Assembly (NCBI GenBank): GCA_036140295.1
Contig: JAYZYL010000002.1
Location: 440-64,439, forward strand
Length of the DNA stretch: 64,000 nt
Direction of reading: 5' to 3'
Source of the DNA: Pseudomonadota bacterium
GTDB taxonomy: Bacteria > Pseudomonadota > Gammaproteobacteria > GCA-002705445 > GCA-002716945
In this document: positions 56,919 through 64,000 of the stretch, in pieces
Layout of the letters: every line of letters begins with the position of its first letter
Numbering within the stretch: the stretch's first letter is position 1
Position numbers and translations under genes: made by a program
The notes under the pieces: generated by a model
Told to the model about the DNA's origin: nothing
Databases searched by the model: none
Seen by the model: the letters and a program-made list of their open reading frames with translations, nothing else

Positions 56919-58175
56919 TTACCTCTTCATTGATTCAAAAAACTCTGAGTTGGTTTTTGAAGATTGGAGTTTTCCTAACATAAATTCCATTGCATCAAGC
57001 TCATCCATAGAGTGCAGAACTTTCCGTAGTATCCAAATTTTTTGGAGTTCATCTGGAGTTGTTAACAACTCTTCTCTCCTAGTTCCTGATCTATTGATGT
57101 TAATAGCTGGATAAATTCTCTTTTCTGAAATTCTTCTGTCTAGATGAATTTCCATATTTCCAGTACCTTTGAATTCCTCATATATGACTTCATCCATTTT
57201 AGAGCCAGTATCAATCAATGCTGTTGCTAAAATTGTAAGGCTTCCTCCTTCCTCTACATTTCTTGCTGCACCAAAAAATCTCTTAGGTTTGGTTAATGCG
57301 CTAGCATCCACCCCACCTGTAAGAACTTTTCCTGAAGACGGAGCTAAAGTATTATATGCTCTTGCAAGTCTAGTAATTGAATCCAATAAAATGACAACAT
57401 CTTTCTTATGCTCAACAAGCCTTTTAGCTTTTTCAATAACCATTTCGGCTACTTGAACATGTCGGTGAGCAGGTTCATCAAATGTACTTGCAACTACCTC
57501 TCCCTTCACCATTCTTGTCATTTCTGTTACTTCTTCAGGTCGTTCATCAATGAGAAGCACAATTAAAACACAATCAGGATTATTCGTAGTGAGACTCTGT
57601 GCAATATTTTGAAGCATAATTGTTTTTCCTGCTTTTGGAGGAGAAATAATTAAACCTCTTTGCCCTTTACCAATAGGGGATGCTATATCAATTAATCTAG
57701 CAGCTATATCTTCACTACTTCCATTGCCACGTTCTAGTCTTAGTCTTTCGTTAGCATGGAGTGGTGTTAAATTTTCAAACAAAATTTTATTTCGTGAACT
57801 TTCAACACTGTCATGATTTACACCATCAACTTTTAATAACGCAAAATATCTTTCCCCTTCTTTTGGAGGTCTTATTTTTCCAGATACAGTATCACCCGTC
57901 CTTAATGAAAATTTTCTGATCTGACTAGGTGAAACATAAATATCATCAGGTCCAGCTAAGTAAGAGCTCCCTGCTGATCTTAAAAATCCAAAACCATCTT
58001 GGAGAATTTCTAAAATACCACTTCCAGAAATATCTTCCCCACTAGATGAATGATTTTTTAGAATAGTAAAAATAACATCTTGCTTTCTCAAGCGATTAAT
58101 ATTTTCCGCACCCATACCTTCAGCAATCTGTATTAGTTCTTGTATTGGTTTTTCTTTAAGTTCAGTTAAATTCAT
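56919..58175 (-). CDS. rho: Transcription termination factor Rho
   Basis: MNLTELK N-terminus, RNA-binding domain, and P-loop [15 protein letters not shown]. Confidence 0.95.
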
Positions 58176-58227: not shown

Positions 58228-58551
58228 TTATAAGTTTTTATCTAAAAAAGATACGAGTTCTGATTTTGATAATACACCAACATTAGTCTCTGCCTTATCT
58301 CCATTTTTAAAAATCATTATTGTTGGAATTCCTCTTATTCCAAATTTCATTGTAGTGTCTGGGTTTTCATCAACATTAAGTTTAGCGAATTTAATTTTGC
58401 CTTCATAATCTTTAGAAGTATCATCGATAATTGGTGAGAGTGCCTTACAAGGGCCACACCATTCTGCCCAAAAATCTAAAAGAACTGGTATATCTGATTT
58501 AAGAACCTCTTCCTCAAAGGAAGCATCTGTTACTACAACAACATTGCTCAT
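58228..58551 (-). CDS. trxA: Thioredoxin
   Basis: 107 aa with WAEWCGPCK. Confidence 0.92.
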   Translation of the reverse strand: MSNVVVVTDASFEEEVLKSDIPVLLDFWAEWCGPCKALSPIIDDTSKDYEGKIKFAKLNVDENPDTTMKFGIRGIPTIMIFKNGDKAETNVGVLSKSELVSFLDKNL

Positions 58552-58727
58552 TAAAAAATTTCCTCCTGTAAAATGATTTTGTTTTCAAAATGAAAAAGAG
58601 TTGTTGAAATGATTAACCCTAATTATAATTTGTTTTTAAAATATATCAAGCTTTATATTGATAATGCTTTTTTATCACTTAATTAATTTAAATTGTACTT
58701 AACTGAAGTTTTAGGAGAAAAAATTGA

Positions 58728-60650
58728 TTAAATAAGGCTCATATTGAGTACGCCTTCCATTTTTTCTGCCATTTCAGATTTTCCAGTTCTACTATCACCA
58801 ATGGTTGCTATAGTAATATCAACTTCTTTTGCTTTTCCATTGCTTACTCTTTTTCTTTTTTCAATAGCAGTTTTTTTAATTAAGTCAATCATGTCATGTG
58901 CTGCTCTCTCAGGTCCATGATGCTCAACCATTTCTCTCTCCGAAAAACCGCCTTTCTTAAGAACGTCATCGGTACTTTCTTTATAAACACCTGCCATCAA
59001 CATACTATGTGCAACGCCAATTTTCATTTTTCCTTCTGAAACACGTTTTTCAAAATTATCAAAAAATCTTTTTTCTATTTTTTCAAATTTTTCACACATG
59101 TCAGCATGTTCAGGCAGAACCTTCCATTCTTTGTCTTTCAATAAAGGAAACGGGTTAGCCCAATAACTTATCTCAACCTCTCCTCTATGTGTCTGAGTAC
59201 TACCTGCAGCAACACGAGCGCCACTTCTAAAATGCTCAAGCGCATCACCTGGCTTCATATCTGCTTTCATGCATGATTCACCTGTAGGAATAATATCGTA
59301 ATTATTTAGATATAATAGAATATCTAATTCTGATCCAGTTGAAATTTCAGAGTATTCTGTAACAGGAACAATTTGTCTTGCATTAGTTCCGGAATGTTTA
59401 TTATATCCAATTTCTCTTCCTTCCATTTGCATTTTTGCATACTCACTAAATCCATCTAAACATGCAAAAGCTCCTGTTTCCGTCCCATAAAAATAAGGAA
59501 CTTCTTCATTAGAACCATTCTTCTCGAGTATAGCTCTACCCATATCATCTGCCTTAATTAACGAATCAAAAATATAAGGTTCATTTGTTTTCTCATCAAA
59601 CCTAACTACATATCTTGTAGCTCCGCAATGAAGAGGTAAATCTCCTTTAATGATACACAACACATTGTGAAGAGTTAACATTGGTTTTTTCCCATAGCCA
59701 AAATATTGACATTCATCTAACCCGGGTATAAGCCCAACTAGCAGGTCATTTTCCCTATCATGATAATAGCCTAAATCTTTCATGTCAGAATTAGGGCAAC
59801 CAAGTATAAATATTCCATCTGGTTGTTTTTTTGTTATGTTCTCAACTTTCGCAAAGGGAAATAAGTTTAATAGGCCTGGTTCTAATTCAATATAGCCACG
59901 AGTTTTATGTATGTAACATAAAATATTCCAAGCTCCTATTTCGAATGGTATTGCAACATATTCTTCCGGTTTAAATGATTCATTTTTAAATGGATTATGA
60001 TCAAGAGCAAAAAACGGGAAGGCTCTTTTATTTGCATGCGTTGTATAGTAAACACCTGTCCTCATATCTGCTGCCGTTGTCATTGGCACTTGATTTAAAT
60101 TAGAATAATCACCAGGTAGTTTCACAAAATGACCAGATATTTCACCTACAGCAACATTCGGATGGCAATCAAGGCCCTTAGTTCTTCTGACACCCTCTCC
60201 AAGGCCGACTTTAATTAATAATATTCTTCGTGTTTCAATAAGTAAGTCTGATAGTTTTTCTGCCTTAGACGAAACCTTATCTTTTATTTGTTCAGCATTG
60301 AGAGATTTTTCAATCACTTCATTGTGTAATCTTACAAGTCTAGTATAGGATTTAGTCCTATAATGGTGAAACGCTCCATCTAAAAATTGGACAGCATCAC
60401 GGAAATCTCGTAATTCATCTCGAGAAAAAGGTGTAACTCCTTCAAGTATTGAGATGTATAGTTTTGCTTCAATATTTTTAATATATTCTATTTTGTGTAG
60501 GACTTCTTCTTTAACCTTTGAGTCATCTCTCTTCTTTAGTTCATTTATAAACTGTTTCTTATAAATTTCTAAGTATTTAGCAAAGGCCTTACTTTTCAAT
60601 AGCTGTGCTGGAGTTGAACAGCCGTCCCGAATTTCTAAAATTTCTTCCAT
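58728..60650 (-). CDS. Uncharacterised divergent PEPCK-fold (PEPCK/HprK superfamily-like) protein
   Basis: QYFGYGKKPMLTLHNVLCIIKGDLPLHCGAT aligns without gaps to the E. coli PckA segment [31 protein letters not shown] (recalled from memory). REIGYNKHS compares with RLIGDDEHG. The central P-loop position reads YGTETGAFAC (no Lys). An HprK-like GDSRTGKSE lies 12 aa from the C terminus (nt 58773-58799). Confidence 0.5.
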   Translation of the reverse strand: MEEILEIRDGCSTPAQLLKSKAFAKYLEIYKKQFINELKKRDDSKVKEEVLHKIEYIKNIEAKLYISILEGVTPFSRDELRDFRDAVQFLDGAFHHYRTKSYTRLVRLHNEVIEKSLNAEQIKDKVSSKAEKLSDLLIETRRILLIKVGLGEGVRRTKGLDCHPNVAVGEISGHFVKLPGDYSNLNQVPMTTAADMRTGVYYTTHANKRAFPFFALDHNPFKNESFKPEEYVAIPFEIGAWNILCYIHKTRGYIELEPGLLNLFPFAKVENITKKQPDGIFILGCPNSDMKDLGYYHDRENDLLVGLIPGLDECQYFGYGKKPMLTLHNVLCIIKGDLPLHCGATRYVVRFDEKTNEPYIFDSLIKADDMGRAILEKNGSNEEVPYFYGTETGAFACLDGFSEYAKMQMEGREIGYNKHSGTNARQIVPVTEYSEISTGSELDILLYLNNYDIIPTGESCMKADMKPGDALEHFRSGARVAAGSTQTHRGEVEISYWANPFPLLKDKEWKVLPEHADMCEKFEKIEKRFFDNFEKRVSEGKMKIGVAHSMLMAGVYKESTDDVLKKGGFSEREMVEHHGPERAAHDMIDLIKKTAIEKRKRVSNGKAKEVDITIATIGDSRTGKSEMAEKMEGVLNMSLI

Positions 60651-60803
60651 TGTGTTTTTCCTTTATAAATAAAATTTCTAAATTACTCTTAAAATCATAG
60701 GCTATTTCAGTATAATATTCCTGTAAATTTAAAGTTTTGTGAATTATAATATTACTTTTTTCAATCATCAATTAAAATATACGTAAATATTTGTGGATTT
60801 TTT

Positions 60804-61997
60804 ATGTCAAATTTGATAAAGCCTCATGGACTGAATGAACTATCACCCCTGTTTATTAGTGATGAAAGCGAAAGGAAGCGCCTAATTGAGGAATCTAAAA
60901 ACCTTAAAAAAATAATGTTAAATTCTTCGGCTGCATCAAATTCTGTGATGTTAGGGGCTGGTTATTTTACTCCATTGACCGGTTATATGGACAAAGAAAA
61001 TGCACTGAGTGTTGCAAAATCAATGATCACAACAGATGGGTTATTTTGGCCTGTTCCAATACTTAATCTTTCTCATTGCGTAGCTGAGATTAAAGAAGGT
61101 GATCAAATAGCGCTCCTTGATCCAAATGTGGACGGAAATCCCCCGATAGCGATTCAAGAAATTAAATCTATTGAAGAGTTATCAGATGATGAGATGAATA
61201 TTTTAGTTAAAAATATATTTGGAACTGATGATATTTCTCATCCAGGCGTTAAAAGCTTTCTTTCGTCAGGTAAATTTTTAATTTCTGGTGATATACAAGT
61301 TTTAAATTTTAGTTATTTTCCAAAAGATTTCCCTAATACGTTTGCCACTGCTAAAGAAATTAGAAATAAAATTAATGCTGCGGGTTGGTCTAAAGTGGTT
61401 GCATTCCAGACAAGGAATCCTATGCATCGTGCTCATGAAGAATTATGTAAAATGGCACTGGAAAGAATTAATGCAGATGGAGTTCTTGTTCATATGACAT
61501 TAGGAAAGCTTAAAGAGGGAGATATACCTGGTGATGTTAGAGATCAAGCGATTAGAAAAATGGTAGAACTATATTTTCCTCCAAATACTGTAATGATTTC
61601 AGGGTTTGGTTTTGATATGCTTTACGCTGGCCCAAGAGAAGCATTACTACATGCAGTATTTCGACAAAATTGTGGTTGTTCACACTTAATAGTTGGTAGG
61701 GACCATGCTGGAGTAGGTGATTACTATGGGGCCTTTGATGCGCAAGAAATTTTTAATACTGAACTCGTTAAGAAATCATTAGAGATTGAGATTTTTGCTG
61801 CAGACCATACGGCGTATTCAAAAAAATTAAAAAAAGTTGTTATGATGAGGGATGTTCAAGATCATACCAAAGATGATTTTGTACTTTTATCTGGAACAAA
61901 GGTTAGAGAAATGCTGTCTAATGGAATTAACCTTCCAGAAGAGTTTGCACGAAAAGAAGTGGCAGATATTTTGATGAAGTACTATCAAACTAAGTAG
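60804..61997 (+). CDS. sat: Sulfate adenylyltransferase (ATP sulfurylase, homo-oligomeric type)
   Basis: QTRNPMHRAHE and GRDHAGVGDYYG motifs, with a PUA-like N-terminal domain. Confidence 0.9.
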   Translation: MSNLIKPHGLNELSPLFISDESERKRLIEESKNLKKIMLNSSAASNSVMLGAGYFTPLTGYMDKENALSVAKSMITTDGLFWPVPILNLSHCVAEIKEGDQIALLDPNVDGNPPIAIQEIKSIEELSDDEMNILVKNIFGTDDISHPGVKSFLSSGKFLISGDIQVLNFSYFPKDFPNTFATAKEIRNKINAAGWSKVVAFQTRNPMHRAHEELCKMALERINADGVLVHMTLGKLKEGDIPGDVRDQAIRKMVELYFPPNTVMISGFGFDMLYAGPREALLHAVFRQNCGCSHLIVGRDHAGVGDYYGAFDAQEIFNTELVKKSLEIEIFAADHTAYSKKLKKVVMMRDVQDHTKDDFVLLSGTKVREMLSNGINLPEEFARKEVADILMKYYQTK

Positions 61998-62120: not shown

Positions 62121-62915
62121 ATGTTAGCTATTAATCCATTTTCTGAACTTTCGGCATCCATACCGTCCGTTGCGATGCAGGTCTTTGTTATTTTAATGAT
62201 TCTTTTGGTAATTGGTGGGACGGTACTTGATATGATTCATAAGAAAAATGTAAAGTATTTTTTTGAAAATGCAAAAAAGGCTAAAGAGTCTGCAACAAGA
62301 GATGTCAGTACTGGAGAGAAGGCTTCAATTATACTAAAAACTGTTGCGTCAGATATTTTAACATCATCAGAGTTTTGTACTTTCCAGCGTCGAACCGCAC
62401 ACCTTCTTGGAATGTATGGAACTATATTGTTTTGGATAACTTCTTTTATTATGATCTTTAACTACTCAACACCAACATCAGTTACGCCTCCTATTCTACC
62501 GTTACTGTGGCATGTTGGGGCAATTATGACATGTGTTGGTGGATTTTGGTTTTGGTTTGTCATTAGAGTTAACGTTTCTGCAGAAGGTCATCCATGGTAC
62601 GAAGTAATTTTTGCAGATTTATTTGTCTTATCACTTCTTGCAACACAATTAACTGCTCTTTTATGGTCTTATTTCCAAGCCACAGGTGCAGTAGTATTAG
62701 ATTCCCTATTTTTAGTTTTGTTTATTATTTCGAATGCTGTTTTATTTGGTGGAGTTTATTGGTCTAAGTTTGCCCACATGTTTTATAAGCCCGGAGCAGC
62801 AATACAAAAACATCTAGCGGAAGCAGATGGCTCTAGAAGTAACTTACCAGAACCGGCAGATAAACCTAAACAGTTTGGATTAGGTATAAGACGTGAAGAA
62901 CCAAGAAATTATTAA
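62121..62915 (+). CDS. aprM: Putative APS reductase membrane anchor AprM
   Basis: 264-aa protein with about 5 TM helices, immediately upstream of aprBA as in AprM-type sulfur oxidisers. Assignment rests mostly on context. Confidence 0.55.
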   Translation: MLAINPFSELSASIPSVAMQVFVILMILLVIGGTVLDMIHKKNVKYFFENAKKAKESATRDVSTGEKASIILKTVASDILTSSEFCTFQRRTAHLLGMYGTILFWITSFIMIFNYSTPTSVTPPILPLLWHVGAIMTCVGGFWFWFVIRVNVSAEGHPWYEVIFADLFVLSLLATQLTALLWSYFQATGAVVLDSLFLVLFIISNAVLFGGVYWSKFAHMFYKPGAAIQKHLAEADGSRSNLPEPADKPKQFGLGIRREEPRNY

Positions 62916-62951: not shown

Positions 62952-63443
62952 ATGTCAACATTTGTATATATGACAAAATGCGATGGATGTGGAATGTGTG
63001 TTGATATCTGTCCGTCAGACATTATGCATATTGATAAAACATTAAGACGTGCAGTTAATATTGAACCTAATATGTGCTGGGAATGCTATTCTTGCGTAAA
63101 AGCATGCGATCAAAATGCAATAGACGCTAGAGGGTATGCAGACTTTGCGCCGTTAGGTCATAGCGTTCGTGTACTTCGTGAAGAAGAAAAAGGAACAATT
63201 TCCTGGAAAATTAAATTTAGAAATGGTCATGAAAAAAACTTTGTTTCCCCAATTACCACTAAACCATGGGGAGAGTGTATTCCAAAACTTTCTGAAGAAG
63301 CAGCACCGAGTAAAGAAGCTATGGATTCAGAATTACTCTACAATGAACCAAAATACCTAAAAACTGGAGATGTAGAAACAGCAGATGATGGTTTACCAGA
63401 AATGACCAAAGTTGGGAAATTAAAACAAGGAGTGTATTACTAA
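62952..63443 (+). CDS. aprB: Adenylylsulfate reductase beta subunit
   Basis: Two ferredoxin-type clusters, CDGCGMCVDICP and CWECYSCVKAC, plus a long C-terminal tail. Confidence 0.88.
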   Translation: MSTFVYMTKCDGCGMCVDICPSDIMHIDKTLRRAVNIEPNMCWECYSCVKACDQNAIDARGYADFAPLGHSVRVLREEEKGTISWKIKFRNGHEKNFVSPITTKPWGECIPKLSEEAAPSKEAMDSELLYNEPKYLKTGDVETADDGLPEMTKVGKLKQGVYY

Positions 63444-64000
63444 TGGCTATTAAAACTATTTATGAAGATTGTGATGTCCTAATAGTTGGAGGTGGTATGG
63501 CTGGAACTGGTGCCACATTTGAGTCCAGATACTGGGGTAAAGACAAGAAAATTATTTGTGTTGAGAAAGCCAATATAGACCGTAGTGGAGCAGTAGCCCA
63601 AGGTTTATATGCTATTAACTGTTATATGGGTATGCAATGGGGTGAAAATCAACCTGAAGATCATGTCCGTTATGCACGAAATGATTTGATGGGTATGGTT
63701 CGTGAAGATCTTGCTTATGATATGGCAAGACATGTTGATTCTGCTGTTCATATGTTTGAAGAATGGGGCTTACCTATGATGCGTAATAAGGAGACAGGTA
63801 GATATCAACGTGAAGGTAAATGGCAAATTATGATTCATGGTGAGAGCTACAAACCAATTGTTGCAGAAGCTGCTAAAAAGTCTGCTGACAAGATATATAA
63901 CAGGGTTATGATTACTCATCTCTTAATGGATGAAACTGAAGAAAATAGAATTGGCGGTGCATGCGGGTTTAATATGCGTACGGGTGATTTCTATGTATTC
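63443..64000 (+). CDS. aprA: Adenylylsulfate reductase alpha subunit (5' partial, runs off the window)
   Basis: Manual translation gives MAIKTIYEDCDVLIVGGGMAGTGATFE...RSGAVAQGLYAINCYMG, with an FAD-binding GGGxAG fold. TAATG overlap with the aprB stop. Not in the ORF track because no stop codon falls within the window. Confidence 0.85.
   Translation, partial: MAIKTIYEDCDVLIVGGGMAGTGATFESRYWGKDKKIICVEKANIDRSGAVAQGLYAINCYMGMQWGENQPEDHVRYARNDLMGMVREDLAYDMARHVDSAVHMFEEWGLPMMRNKETGRYQREGKWQIMIHGESYKPIVAEAAKKSADKIYNRVMITHLLMDETEENRIGGACGFNMRTGDFYVF

Follow-up and report, generated by a model that had tools for sequence, protein, structure and literature searches.

ATP-type phosphoenolpyruvate carboxykinases (PEPCKs), such as PckA of Escherichia coli (PF01293, TIGR00224; 1AQ2/6V2M), have a two-domain fold with the Walker A motif or P-loop (GLSGTGKTT) located mid-chain, between a metal-binding His and an Asp-Asp pair. 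In PckA, K213, H232 and D269 are the Mn2+ ligands and Y207 and R333 contact the substrate. Here we describe a 640-aa protein, from now on referred to as X (also P0001 in our protein set), encoded on the minus strand at positions 58728-60650 of a 64,000-nucleotide stretch (the window) of contig JAYZYL010000002.1 from a gammaproteobacterial assembly (GCA_036140295.1). X represents a structurally novel version of the PEPCK fold, belongs to an uncharacterized family and is neither a PckA nor an HPr kinase/phosphorylase (HprK/P) by the models of those families. Its P-loop is found at the extreme C-terminus, to which it was very probably relocated from the mid-chain position.

The C-terminal domain of HprK/P (PF07475, TIGR00679) belongs to the same superfamily as X, with a near-identical Walker A motif, G(D/E)SGxGKSE, followed by a helix. 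However, HprK has a kinase domain of about 170 aa that acts on a protein and continues for about 100 residues after the P-loop, whereas the loop of X lies close to the chain end and X matches no HprK hidden Markov model. HprK/P can use pyrophosphate (PPi) as donor and also generates PPi by phosphorolysis. A third divergent kind of PEPCK-fold enzyme with a different phosphoryl donor is the PPi-dependent PEPCK of Propionibacterium, Entamoeba and Actinomyces (about 1100-1150 aa), which provides a precedent for unrecognized PEPCK classes and is much larger than X. In the circularly permuted P-loop GTPases RsgA/YjeQ, RbgA/YlqF and YqeH, all functional enzymes, Walker A follows the motifs it normally precedes. 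These are whole-domain permutations; in contrast, X belongs to a different fold class and has moved a single element of about 25 aa, with all other motifs in PckA order. To our knowledge, no member of the PEPCK or HprK superfamilies with such an arrangement has been described, and a literature search found none.

Fold and relationship to PEPCK

Relatives of X that carry a mid-chain P-loop are from now on referred to as canonical. An alignment of 59 canonical relatives and 24 X-clade members (A2, 83 sequences) yielded an AlphaFold2 (AF2) model of X with a predicted local distance difference test score (pLDDT) of 92.5 and a predicted template modelling score of 0.91. When this model was compared with the Protein Data Bank (PDB) using Foldseek, every one of the 50 best matches listed was a PEPCK, ATP-type enzymes first and GTP-type enzymes after them, with E. 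coli PckA (6v2m) as the best match (E 5.9e-13, prob 1.00). With only 20 close homologues in the alignment, an initial model reached a poor pLDDT of 62.8; here too, all Foldseek matches at E <= 0.01 were PEPCKs, at template modelling (TM) scores of about 0.2. Profile-profile alignment by hhalign agrees with the fold search. The canonical subfamily aligned to 15 gammaproteobacterial PckA sequences over 398 columns (Prob 90.6%, E 1.3e-6), and the whole family aligned to PckA at an E value of about 1e-4, the PckA alignment beginning at aa 142 of X. The similarity of X to PEPCK is not due to chance, and X is almost certainly a PEPCK homologue with the fold that the model predicts, as the first-pass annotation, made from the sequence without database searches, had proposed.

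The relationship is visible only through fold search or profile-profile comparison. A sequence search of X against PDB chains returned no match, an X-clade profile likewise found nothing there, and a mixed profile retrieved only generic P-loop proteins (ABC transporters, Rab GTPases), which were rejected. In addition to the two PEPCK domains, X has an N-terminal helical region of about 150 aa, somewhat shorter than the roughly 170 aa initially proposed, in which AF2 places helices at aa 14-147. The family profile matches canonical relatives from about position 10, so this region is included in the shared sequence.

58728..60650, minus strand: complete open reading frame (ORF) of X, predicted PEPCK-fold protein, stop codon included
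60201..60650, minus strand: N-terminal helical region (aa 1-150), no PckA counterpart, kept in canonical relatives

Conservation of the catalytic residues

The PckA residue numbers used here agree with the E. coli K-12 pck sequence that was fetched for comparison. Based on hhalign, Y207, G209, K212, K213 and H232 of PckA correspond to Y316, G318, K321, K322 and H341 of X, and D268, D269, E282 and R333 correspond to D368, D369, E391 and R425. The order of these residues is that of PckA. All mapped positions are invariant or nearly so among the 83 aligned family members: Y316, G318 and K321 are kept in 83/83, K322 in 81/83 and both D368 and D369 in 83/83. FLSGYTAK-like and GAPF-like PEPCK motifs are conserved in the family as well, and X shows FLSGYTAKVAGTE-, GAPF- and NTGW-like motifs in the same order as PckA. 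The motifs of X are located as follows.

59685..59705, minus strand: YFGYGKK (aa 316-322), equivalent to PckA Y207-G209-K212-K213
59619..59630, minus strand: HCGA (aa 341-344); H341 is equivalent to PckA H232, C342 is clade-specific
59538..59555, minus strand: KADDMG (aa 366-371), equivalent to PckA IGDDEHG; D368/D369 correspond to D268/D269
59460..59492, minus strand: FYGTETGAFAC (aa 387-397), equivalent to PckA FNFEGGCYAK; E391 corresponds to E282, C397 to K288
59361..59387, minus strand: TNARQIVPV (aa 422-430), equivalent to PckA TENTRVSYP; R425 corresponds to R333
59196..59231, minus strand: FRSGARVAAGST (aa 474-485), equivalent to the PckA FLSGYTAKVAGTE motif

Several details of the first-pass annotation can be revised on this basis. 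Its ORF and motif coordinates were exact (HCGA at nt 59619-59630, GDSRTGKSE at nt 58773-58799), X contains the quoted strings QYFGYGKKPMLTLHNVLCIIKGDLPLHCGAT, REIGYNKHS and FYGTETGAFAC, and the proposed ungapped alignment of QYFGYGKK...LHCGA with PckA WYGGEMKK...MHCSA is reproduced by the profile-profile comparison. However, REIGYNKHS had been read as PckA RLIGDDEHG stripped of both Asp residues. The true equivalent is IKADDMG (aa 365-371), in which both are present, and REIGYNKHS lies further downstream. FYGTETGAFAC, which had been taken for a dead kinase-1a P-loop, aligns instead to PckA FNFEGGCYAK, after the Asp-Asp motif; the actual P-loop site lies between aa 351 and 358, past the hairpin that follows H341 and ahead of the Asp-Asp strand, and is a clean gap in X.

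Relocation of the P-loop

Canonical relatives form a sister family of about 570-600 aa (Clostridium, Anaerococcus, Thermosulfurimonas, Chloroflexota, KSB1 and others) that is homologous to X over its full length (profile E values down to 1e-54, 23-33% identity) and shares with it the N-terminal helical region and the invariant motifs YFGYxKK, PxH, DDMG, GTExGAF, NAR and ANPF. Unlike X, members of the sister family have a mid-chain GDSGAGKSE, carry Arg where X has C397 and lack the C-terminal tail. In about 60 representative relatives of 550-600 aa, from Clostridium, Anaerococcus, Chloroflexota and others, GDSGAGKSE follows the His at a distance of 22 residues. Among representatives of at least 400 aa at 50% identity, G[DEG]xxxGKS, nearly always GDSGAGKS, is found 21-23 aa past P-x-His, and all P-loop-bearing canonical proteins that retain P-x-His have it there. 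X-clade members have no mid-chain loop and carry GDSR[TA]GKS about 20 residues from the C-terminus. The mid-chain Walker A motif is absent from 24/24 aligned X-clade members and from 114/114 close homologues.

59577..59600, minus strand: DEKTNEPY (aa 351-358), turn at the position of the excised Walker A motif, from the alignment block
58773..58799, minus strand: GDSRTGKSE (aa 618-626), HprK-type Walker A (Arg at position 4), 14 residues before the stop
58731..58841, minus strand: C-terminal tail (aa 604-640) with linker, strand 609-617, P-loop and helix 624-635 by AF2 secondary structure

What the X clade lacks are the 24-26 residues that form the canonical strand-GDSGAGKSE-helix element between the His and the Asp-Asp pair, and the flanking segments align on both sides of the gap. 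A profile built from the last 45 residues of the X clade aligns to exactly this canonical P-loop segment (hhalign Prob 96.8%, E 2.1e-10) and more weakly to the P-loop of PckA (E 7e-5). The canonical C-terminus aligns to X until about residue 600 and the tail of X therefore represents an addition of about 40 residues. Exact GDSRTGKSE is found in 110/114 full-length close homologues (>=59% identity), always 14-23 residues from the end, and the tail loop is thus under strong constraint. The first-pass annotation had already placed an HprK-like P-loop at the chain end and suggested a rearranged enzyme with a tail-supplied loop; both points are supported, with 14 residues, not 12, between the loop and the stop. 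A frameshift or a lost continuation past the loop was considered and rejected: X ends in TAA, followed by an AT-rich 176-nt spacer and then trxA with its own ribosome-binding site, and all homologues stop 14-23 residues past the loop.

A maximum likelihood tree separates the 24 permuted from the 59 canonical sequences by one branch (SH-aLRT 100, length about 1.35), making the X clade a single derived clade, one long branch apart from its sister family. Since PckA, HprK and the canonical relatives all have a mid-chain loop and only this single branch is needed, the mid-chain position appears to be ancestral and the loop very probably moved once. No intermediates with both a mid-chain and a C-terminal loop were found among the representatives listed.

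The permuted clade differs from its canonical relatives at further positions around the presumed active site. Position 397 (nt 59460-59462), aligned to PckA K288, is Cys in 24/24 permuted and Arg in 58/59 canonical sequences. Conversely, position 4 of Walker A is Arg in the permuted clade (R621, nt 58788-58790) and Gly in canonical relatives. It looks as if a positive charge had shifted along with the loop. At residue 342, the permuted clade has Cys where canonical relatives have Gly, and R489, R582 and R372 are invariant or nearly so in the permuted clade only. Within the AF2 model, mean pLDDT values of the tail are 94 (aa 611-620), 88 (aa 621-630) and 78 (aa 631-640). Because the linker after the last domain helix is short (5 residues) and model confidence is high, the tail is predicted to fold back in cis, which would probably restore Walker A to the active site. 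X would be a natural case in which a strand/Walker A/helix element moved by about 270 residues to the C-terminus of an enzyme that is still under strong constraint, accompanied by co-varying changes around the site.

Proposed function at the PEP-oxaloacetate node

We hypothesize that the family descends from a protein of about 570-600 aa with an HprK-like GDSGAGKSE 22 residues past the metal-binding His, as in PckA, and that in the X clade the strand/P-loop/helix element was deleted mid-chain and an equivalent one added behind the final helix of the catalytic domain. Folding back in cis, the tail would bring the Walker A residues K624 and S625 beside Y316, K321, K322, H341, D368, D369, E391 and R425. 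The changes from Arg to Cys at 397 and from Gly to Arg in the loop, together with the new invariant R489 and R582, would have co-varied with this move. X would then interconvert oxaloacetate and phosphoenolpyruvate (PEP), or a closely similar carboxylate/enol-phosphate pair, with a nucleotide or PPi as the putative partner. On balance, we favor the reading that X is an active phosphotransferase of the PEPCK fold. That its substrates are PEP and oxaloacetate is put forward more tentatively, as a reading with slightly less than an even case behind it.

A role at the PEP-oxaloacetate node is suggested by three indirect lines of evidence, namely the retained metal and substrate residues, the genome neighborhoods of canonical relatives and the enzyme gaps in the ~1-Mb genomes of the family to which the window belongs (from now on f1). 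Tight same-strand neighbors of canonical relatives include citrate synthase and ProB in a Chloroflexota genome, oxaloacetate decarboxylase (OAD) alpha/pyruvate carboxylase (PYC) B in Brevinema, a class I/II aminotransferase in Peptoniphilaceae (one of six such neighbors in our tally), class V aminotransferases in Thermosulfurimonas and on a TGA-recoding contig, fumarase/aspartase in FCPU426, and asd with aspartokinase in KSB1. An AsnC/Lrp regulator is found nearby at 13/35 canonical loci, mostly in Clostridium, so these cases are not independent.

X is present in 22/25 f1 genomes, one of them counted on a match to the last 22 residues only. In a census of 31 f1 genomes, PckA was found in 1/31, GTP-PEPCK in 0/31, PYC/OAD in 0/31 and Ppc in 14/31. 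Contamination may account for the single PckA match (contig C62 of genome G006). In 7/31 genomes, ORFs of 780-1005 aa contain weak matches to PPDK_N (E 1e-5 to 1e-10). In the genus of the window (4 genomes, two of them >=96% complete), no Ppc, PckA, GTP-PEPCK or PYC was found. There, X would be the sole identifiable PEP-oxaloacetate link and may be the only enzyme joining the two metabolites in these tiny marine genomes. All three f1 genomes without X have Ppc. X carriers outside f1 have PckA in 1/9 and Ppc in 8/9 cases, and this PckA-poor, Ppc-rich background fits a gluconeogenic, PckA-like role of X there. If so, X may fill a gap in reconstructions of PEP-oxaloacetate metabolism for abundant uncultured marine sulfur-oxidizing Gammaproteobacteria with genomes of ~1 Mb.

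It should be noted that a number of observations weigh against X being a PEPCK-like enzyme acting on PEP and oxaloacetate. X has no match at E <= 0.01 among Pfam and NCBIfam models, including PF01293 and TIGR00224, whereas PckA is defined by these two. Even the best relatives reach only 25-27 bits over about 80 residues, and an 80-residue PF01293 match (27.2, 23.8 and 20.2 bits against a cut-off of 26.5) is the only family match behind the PEPCK names found in the family. Foldseek alignments of X with PEPCK structures, about 450-550 columns long, have low TM-scores (0.33-0.44), and PckA has nothing related to the N-terminal 150 aa. Alignment confidence is low around PckA R65 (in TGRSPKDK), which is paired with K177, a position that is not conserved, and the adenine-binding R449 is not aligned. 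R209, the most conserved Arg before the catalytic motifs (82/83 sequences), is a candidate for the role of R65. Neighborhood support comes from canonical relatives only, as permuted homologues outside f1 have unrelated housekeeping neighbors. The complementarity of X and Ppc in f1 is not significant (p = 0.07). One carrier genome (G052) holds both X and a canonical PckA and 8/9 carriers outside f1 have Ppc, so X is not simply a replacement for one enzyme. Finally, the family is experimentally uncharacterized.

Alternative functions

Among the alternatives, the one that survives best is a PEPCK-fold kinase or decarboxylase acting on another small acid, such as a different 2-oxo or enol acid. 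It would accommodate the strong divergence of X from PckA (about 12-14% identity in Foldseek alignments), the extra N-terminal domain, the unaligned R65 region, the co-occurrence of X and PckA in G052 and the fact that class V aminotransferase and metallo-beta-lactamase-fold neighbors are not specific to oxaloacetate. However, all mapped oxaloacetate/PEP and Mn ligands are kept, citrate synthase, OAD/PYC-B, fumarase/aspartase and aspartate-family neighbors handle oxaloacetate or its direct derivatives, and the genus of the window has no other PEP-oxaloacetate enzyme among those tested. We therefore regard another small acid as unlikely.

A second alternative is suggested by the genes next to X, a sulfate adenylyltransferase gene and aprMBA. 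As initially annotated, they are divergent from X, with a spacer of 153 nt.

60804-61997, plus strand: sat (sulfate adenylyltransferase), divergent from X
62121-62915, plus strand: aprM-like ORF, 3' of sat and before aprB
62952-63443, plus strand: aprB, after the aprM-like ORF
63443-64000, plus strand: aprA, 5' part, after aprB and reaching the window end
58228-58551, minus strand: trxA, downstream of X
56919-58175, minus strand: rho, downstream of X

X could be a PPi-linked partner of Sat/Apr that catalyzes PEP + CO2 + Pi (inorganic phosphate) -> oxaloacetate + PPi or the reverse, with the loop handling Pi/PPi, and that feeds Sat with PPi for the conversion of adenosine 5'-phosphosulfate to ATP and sulfate in sulfur oxidizers. 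The divergent sat-X order with aprMBA beyond sat is kept in the window and in all tested relatives with >=75% identity, most of which also have trxA-rho downstream of X. Full-length X was found in 11 of 300 evenly drawn Gammaproteobacteria genomes, from 10 GTDB families; aprA is present in 10/11 of these compared with 67/289 genomes without X (Fisher p = 7e-6, or p = 9e-5 excluding f1). The P-loop is of the HprK type, and the gain of invariant R621, R489, R582 and R372 together with the loss of R397 in the permuted clade would fit a changed phosphoryl partner.

Adjacency to sat is missing at every permuted homologue of 53-70% identity (about 35 loci), and the arrangement is also absent at the P0087 and P0119 loci. 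Permuted loci outside f1 have housekeeping neighbors, for example valyl-tRNA synthetase, PepA and primase. Operon coupling of X with sat/apr was rejected, as the synteny is confined to homologues of >=75% identity; the sat-X gene order is lineage-specific. The functional link to sat that had been entertained for this locus is thus left with the phyletic association with aprA and without the gene order. Even this association may reflect a shared autotrophic sulfur-oxidizer lifestyle or shared ancestry, because only 10/77 aprA-positive genomes carry X, which also means that Sat/Apr do not need X. Further, one permuted homologue lies on a code-25 (SR1/Gracilibacteria) contig, from a group not known for Apr/Sat sulfur oxidation. 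Taken together, a PPi-linked partnership with Sat/Apr appears rather improbable. Little credence is likewise given to the more specific proposal that X represents a class of PEP/oxaloacetate enzymes with a split active site and a tail-delivered Walker A motif that handles Pi/PPi and not a nucleotide. If this were true, PEP + CO2 + Pi -> oxaloacetate + PPi would make X both the anaplerotic enzyme of streamlined, Ppc-less sulfur-oxidizing Gammaproteobacteria and a PPi source for Sat, and would explain the sat-aprMBA pairing and the near-restriction to aprA-bearing genomes.

X might also be a regulatory protein kinase/phosphorylase similar to HprK/P or PDRP, with a protein as substrate. GDSxxGKSE is a variant of the HprK/P Walker A motif, the canonical relative P0197 matches TIGR00679 hpr-ser (E 2.5e-5), P0163 weakly matches Hpr_kinase_C, and the HprK structures 1jb1 and 2qmh are among the weak profile matches. 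However, those matches cover the P-loop only, and the 50 best Foldseek matches listed are without exception PEPCKs, aligned over about 450-550 columns, with no HprK structure among them. The equivalents of PEPCK Y207, K212, K213, H232 and R333 and the FLSGYTAK-like and GAPF-like motifs are conserved in X. HprK is not known to possess equivalents of the PEPCK substrate and metal residues or of these motifs. Family members of X also have no conserved partner gene adjoining them, and a regulatory role of this kind is considered quite improbable.

A catalytically dead pseudo-enzyme or scaffold, as once entertained for X on account of the missing Walker A motif at the canonical position, and in keeping with the lack of a Pfam/NCBIfam match, is highly improbable given the invariant mapped catalytic residues, the intact Asp-Asp pair, a tail loop identical in 110/114 homologues down to 59% identity and the retention of the gene in 22/25 genomes of only about 1 Mb.

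Distribution and annotation of the family

The protein collection contains 397 homologues of X. Identity ranges from 59% to 88% among the best 120, hardly any of which bear a name. Searching 1.84 billion representatives with a profile yielded 313 proteins at E <= 1e-3, most of them of 550-600 aa. The family spans at least 595 loci in the species-genome collection, and canonical relatives number at least 5826 at E <= 1e-30. Record titles of permuted loci include Thiotrichales, Thiohalomonas, Thiohalophilus, Ectothiorhodospiraceae and Candidatus Porisulfidus.

Clostridium relatives (P0288-P0391) are called 'phosphoenolpyruvate carboxykinase (ATP)' in NCBI records, and P0135, P0315 and P0316 are likewise listed among the named canonical relatives. 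Others carry the name 'energy-coupling factor transporter ATP-binding protein EcfA2'; here the P-loop has very likely led to mis-annotation. DUF4914 (PF16260) was considered as a family assignment and discarded, as some canonical relatives show sub-threshold matches limited to the P-loop region; a literature search found no mention of it. Thousands of canonical relatives are therefore named PEPCK or EcfA2 on marginal evidence while the permuted clade is left 'hypothetical', and one characterized member would give the whole family a name.

The permuted homologue on the code-25 contig mentioned above (P0122; 637 aa; L118:497-2410, plus strand) is encoded on the 2.5-kb contig ENA ERZ24794644 and shows the tail VGDSRTGKSE and the motif GAFAC. 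Its ORF contains 32 in-frame TGA codons, and those in conserved motifs fall at invariant Gly positions. In the collection, TGA is read as Trp (table 4); translation with table 25 (SR1/Gracilibacteria, TGA = Gly) restores YFGYLKKP, GTEIGAF and GDSRTGKSE. The permuted clade therefore extends past Gammaproteobacteria, and the invariant glycines of the family can serve as a detector of code 25.

Permuted homologues about 57% identical to X were also seen in L059 ('Nitrospira sp. bin75') and L077 ('Candidatus Bathyarchaeota archaeon'). The ORF layout around the gene in L059 is that of L058, which is labelled Gammaproteobacteria. Both occurrences are probably binning or labelling errors and not real in those phyla. 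Single-cell genomes of the AG-xxx series labelled Alphaproteobacteria contain copies of 65-70% identity and were likewise judged to be probably mislabelled.

One further protein, P0242 (646 aa), joins a canonical-type C-terminal half (P-loop at aa 58, GTExGAF at aa 104) to a domain of SAICAR synthetase (PurC, aa 310-511), an enzyme that uses aspartate and ATP. P0242 could be a gene fusion or an artefact of assembly or gene calling.

Organization of the locus

The 640 codons of X are open, with a stop-free translation. Three promoter-like sites were noted around the gene.

60743..60771, minus strand: promoter-like TTGATG-17-TATAAT in the AT-rich spacer upstream of X, by consensus match alone
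60689-60716, plus strand: promoter-like site upstream of sat, sharing the 153-nt divergent spacer with the candidate X promoter
58622-58649, minus strand: strong promoter-like TTGATA-16-TATAAT (11/12 matches) in the X-trxA spacer

Based on the site in the X-trxA spacer, trxA-rho are probably transcribed separately from X. The 264-aa ORF at 62121-62915 has no Pfam match and weakly matches the C-terminal membrane part of QmoC (NF038018, E 1.4e-7), which fits a putative membrane anchor of the AprM type.

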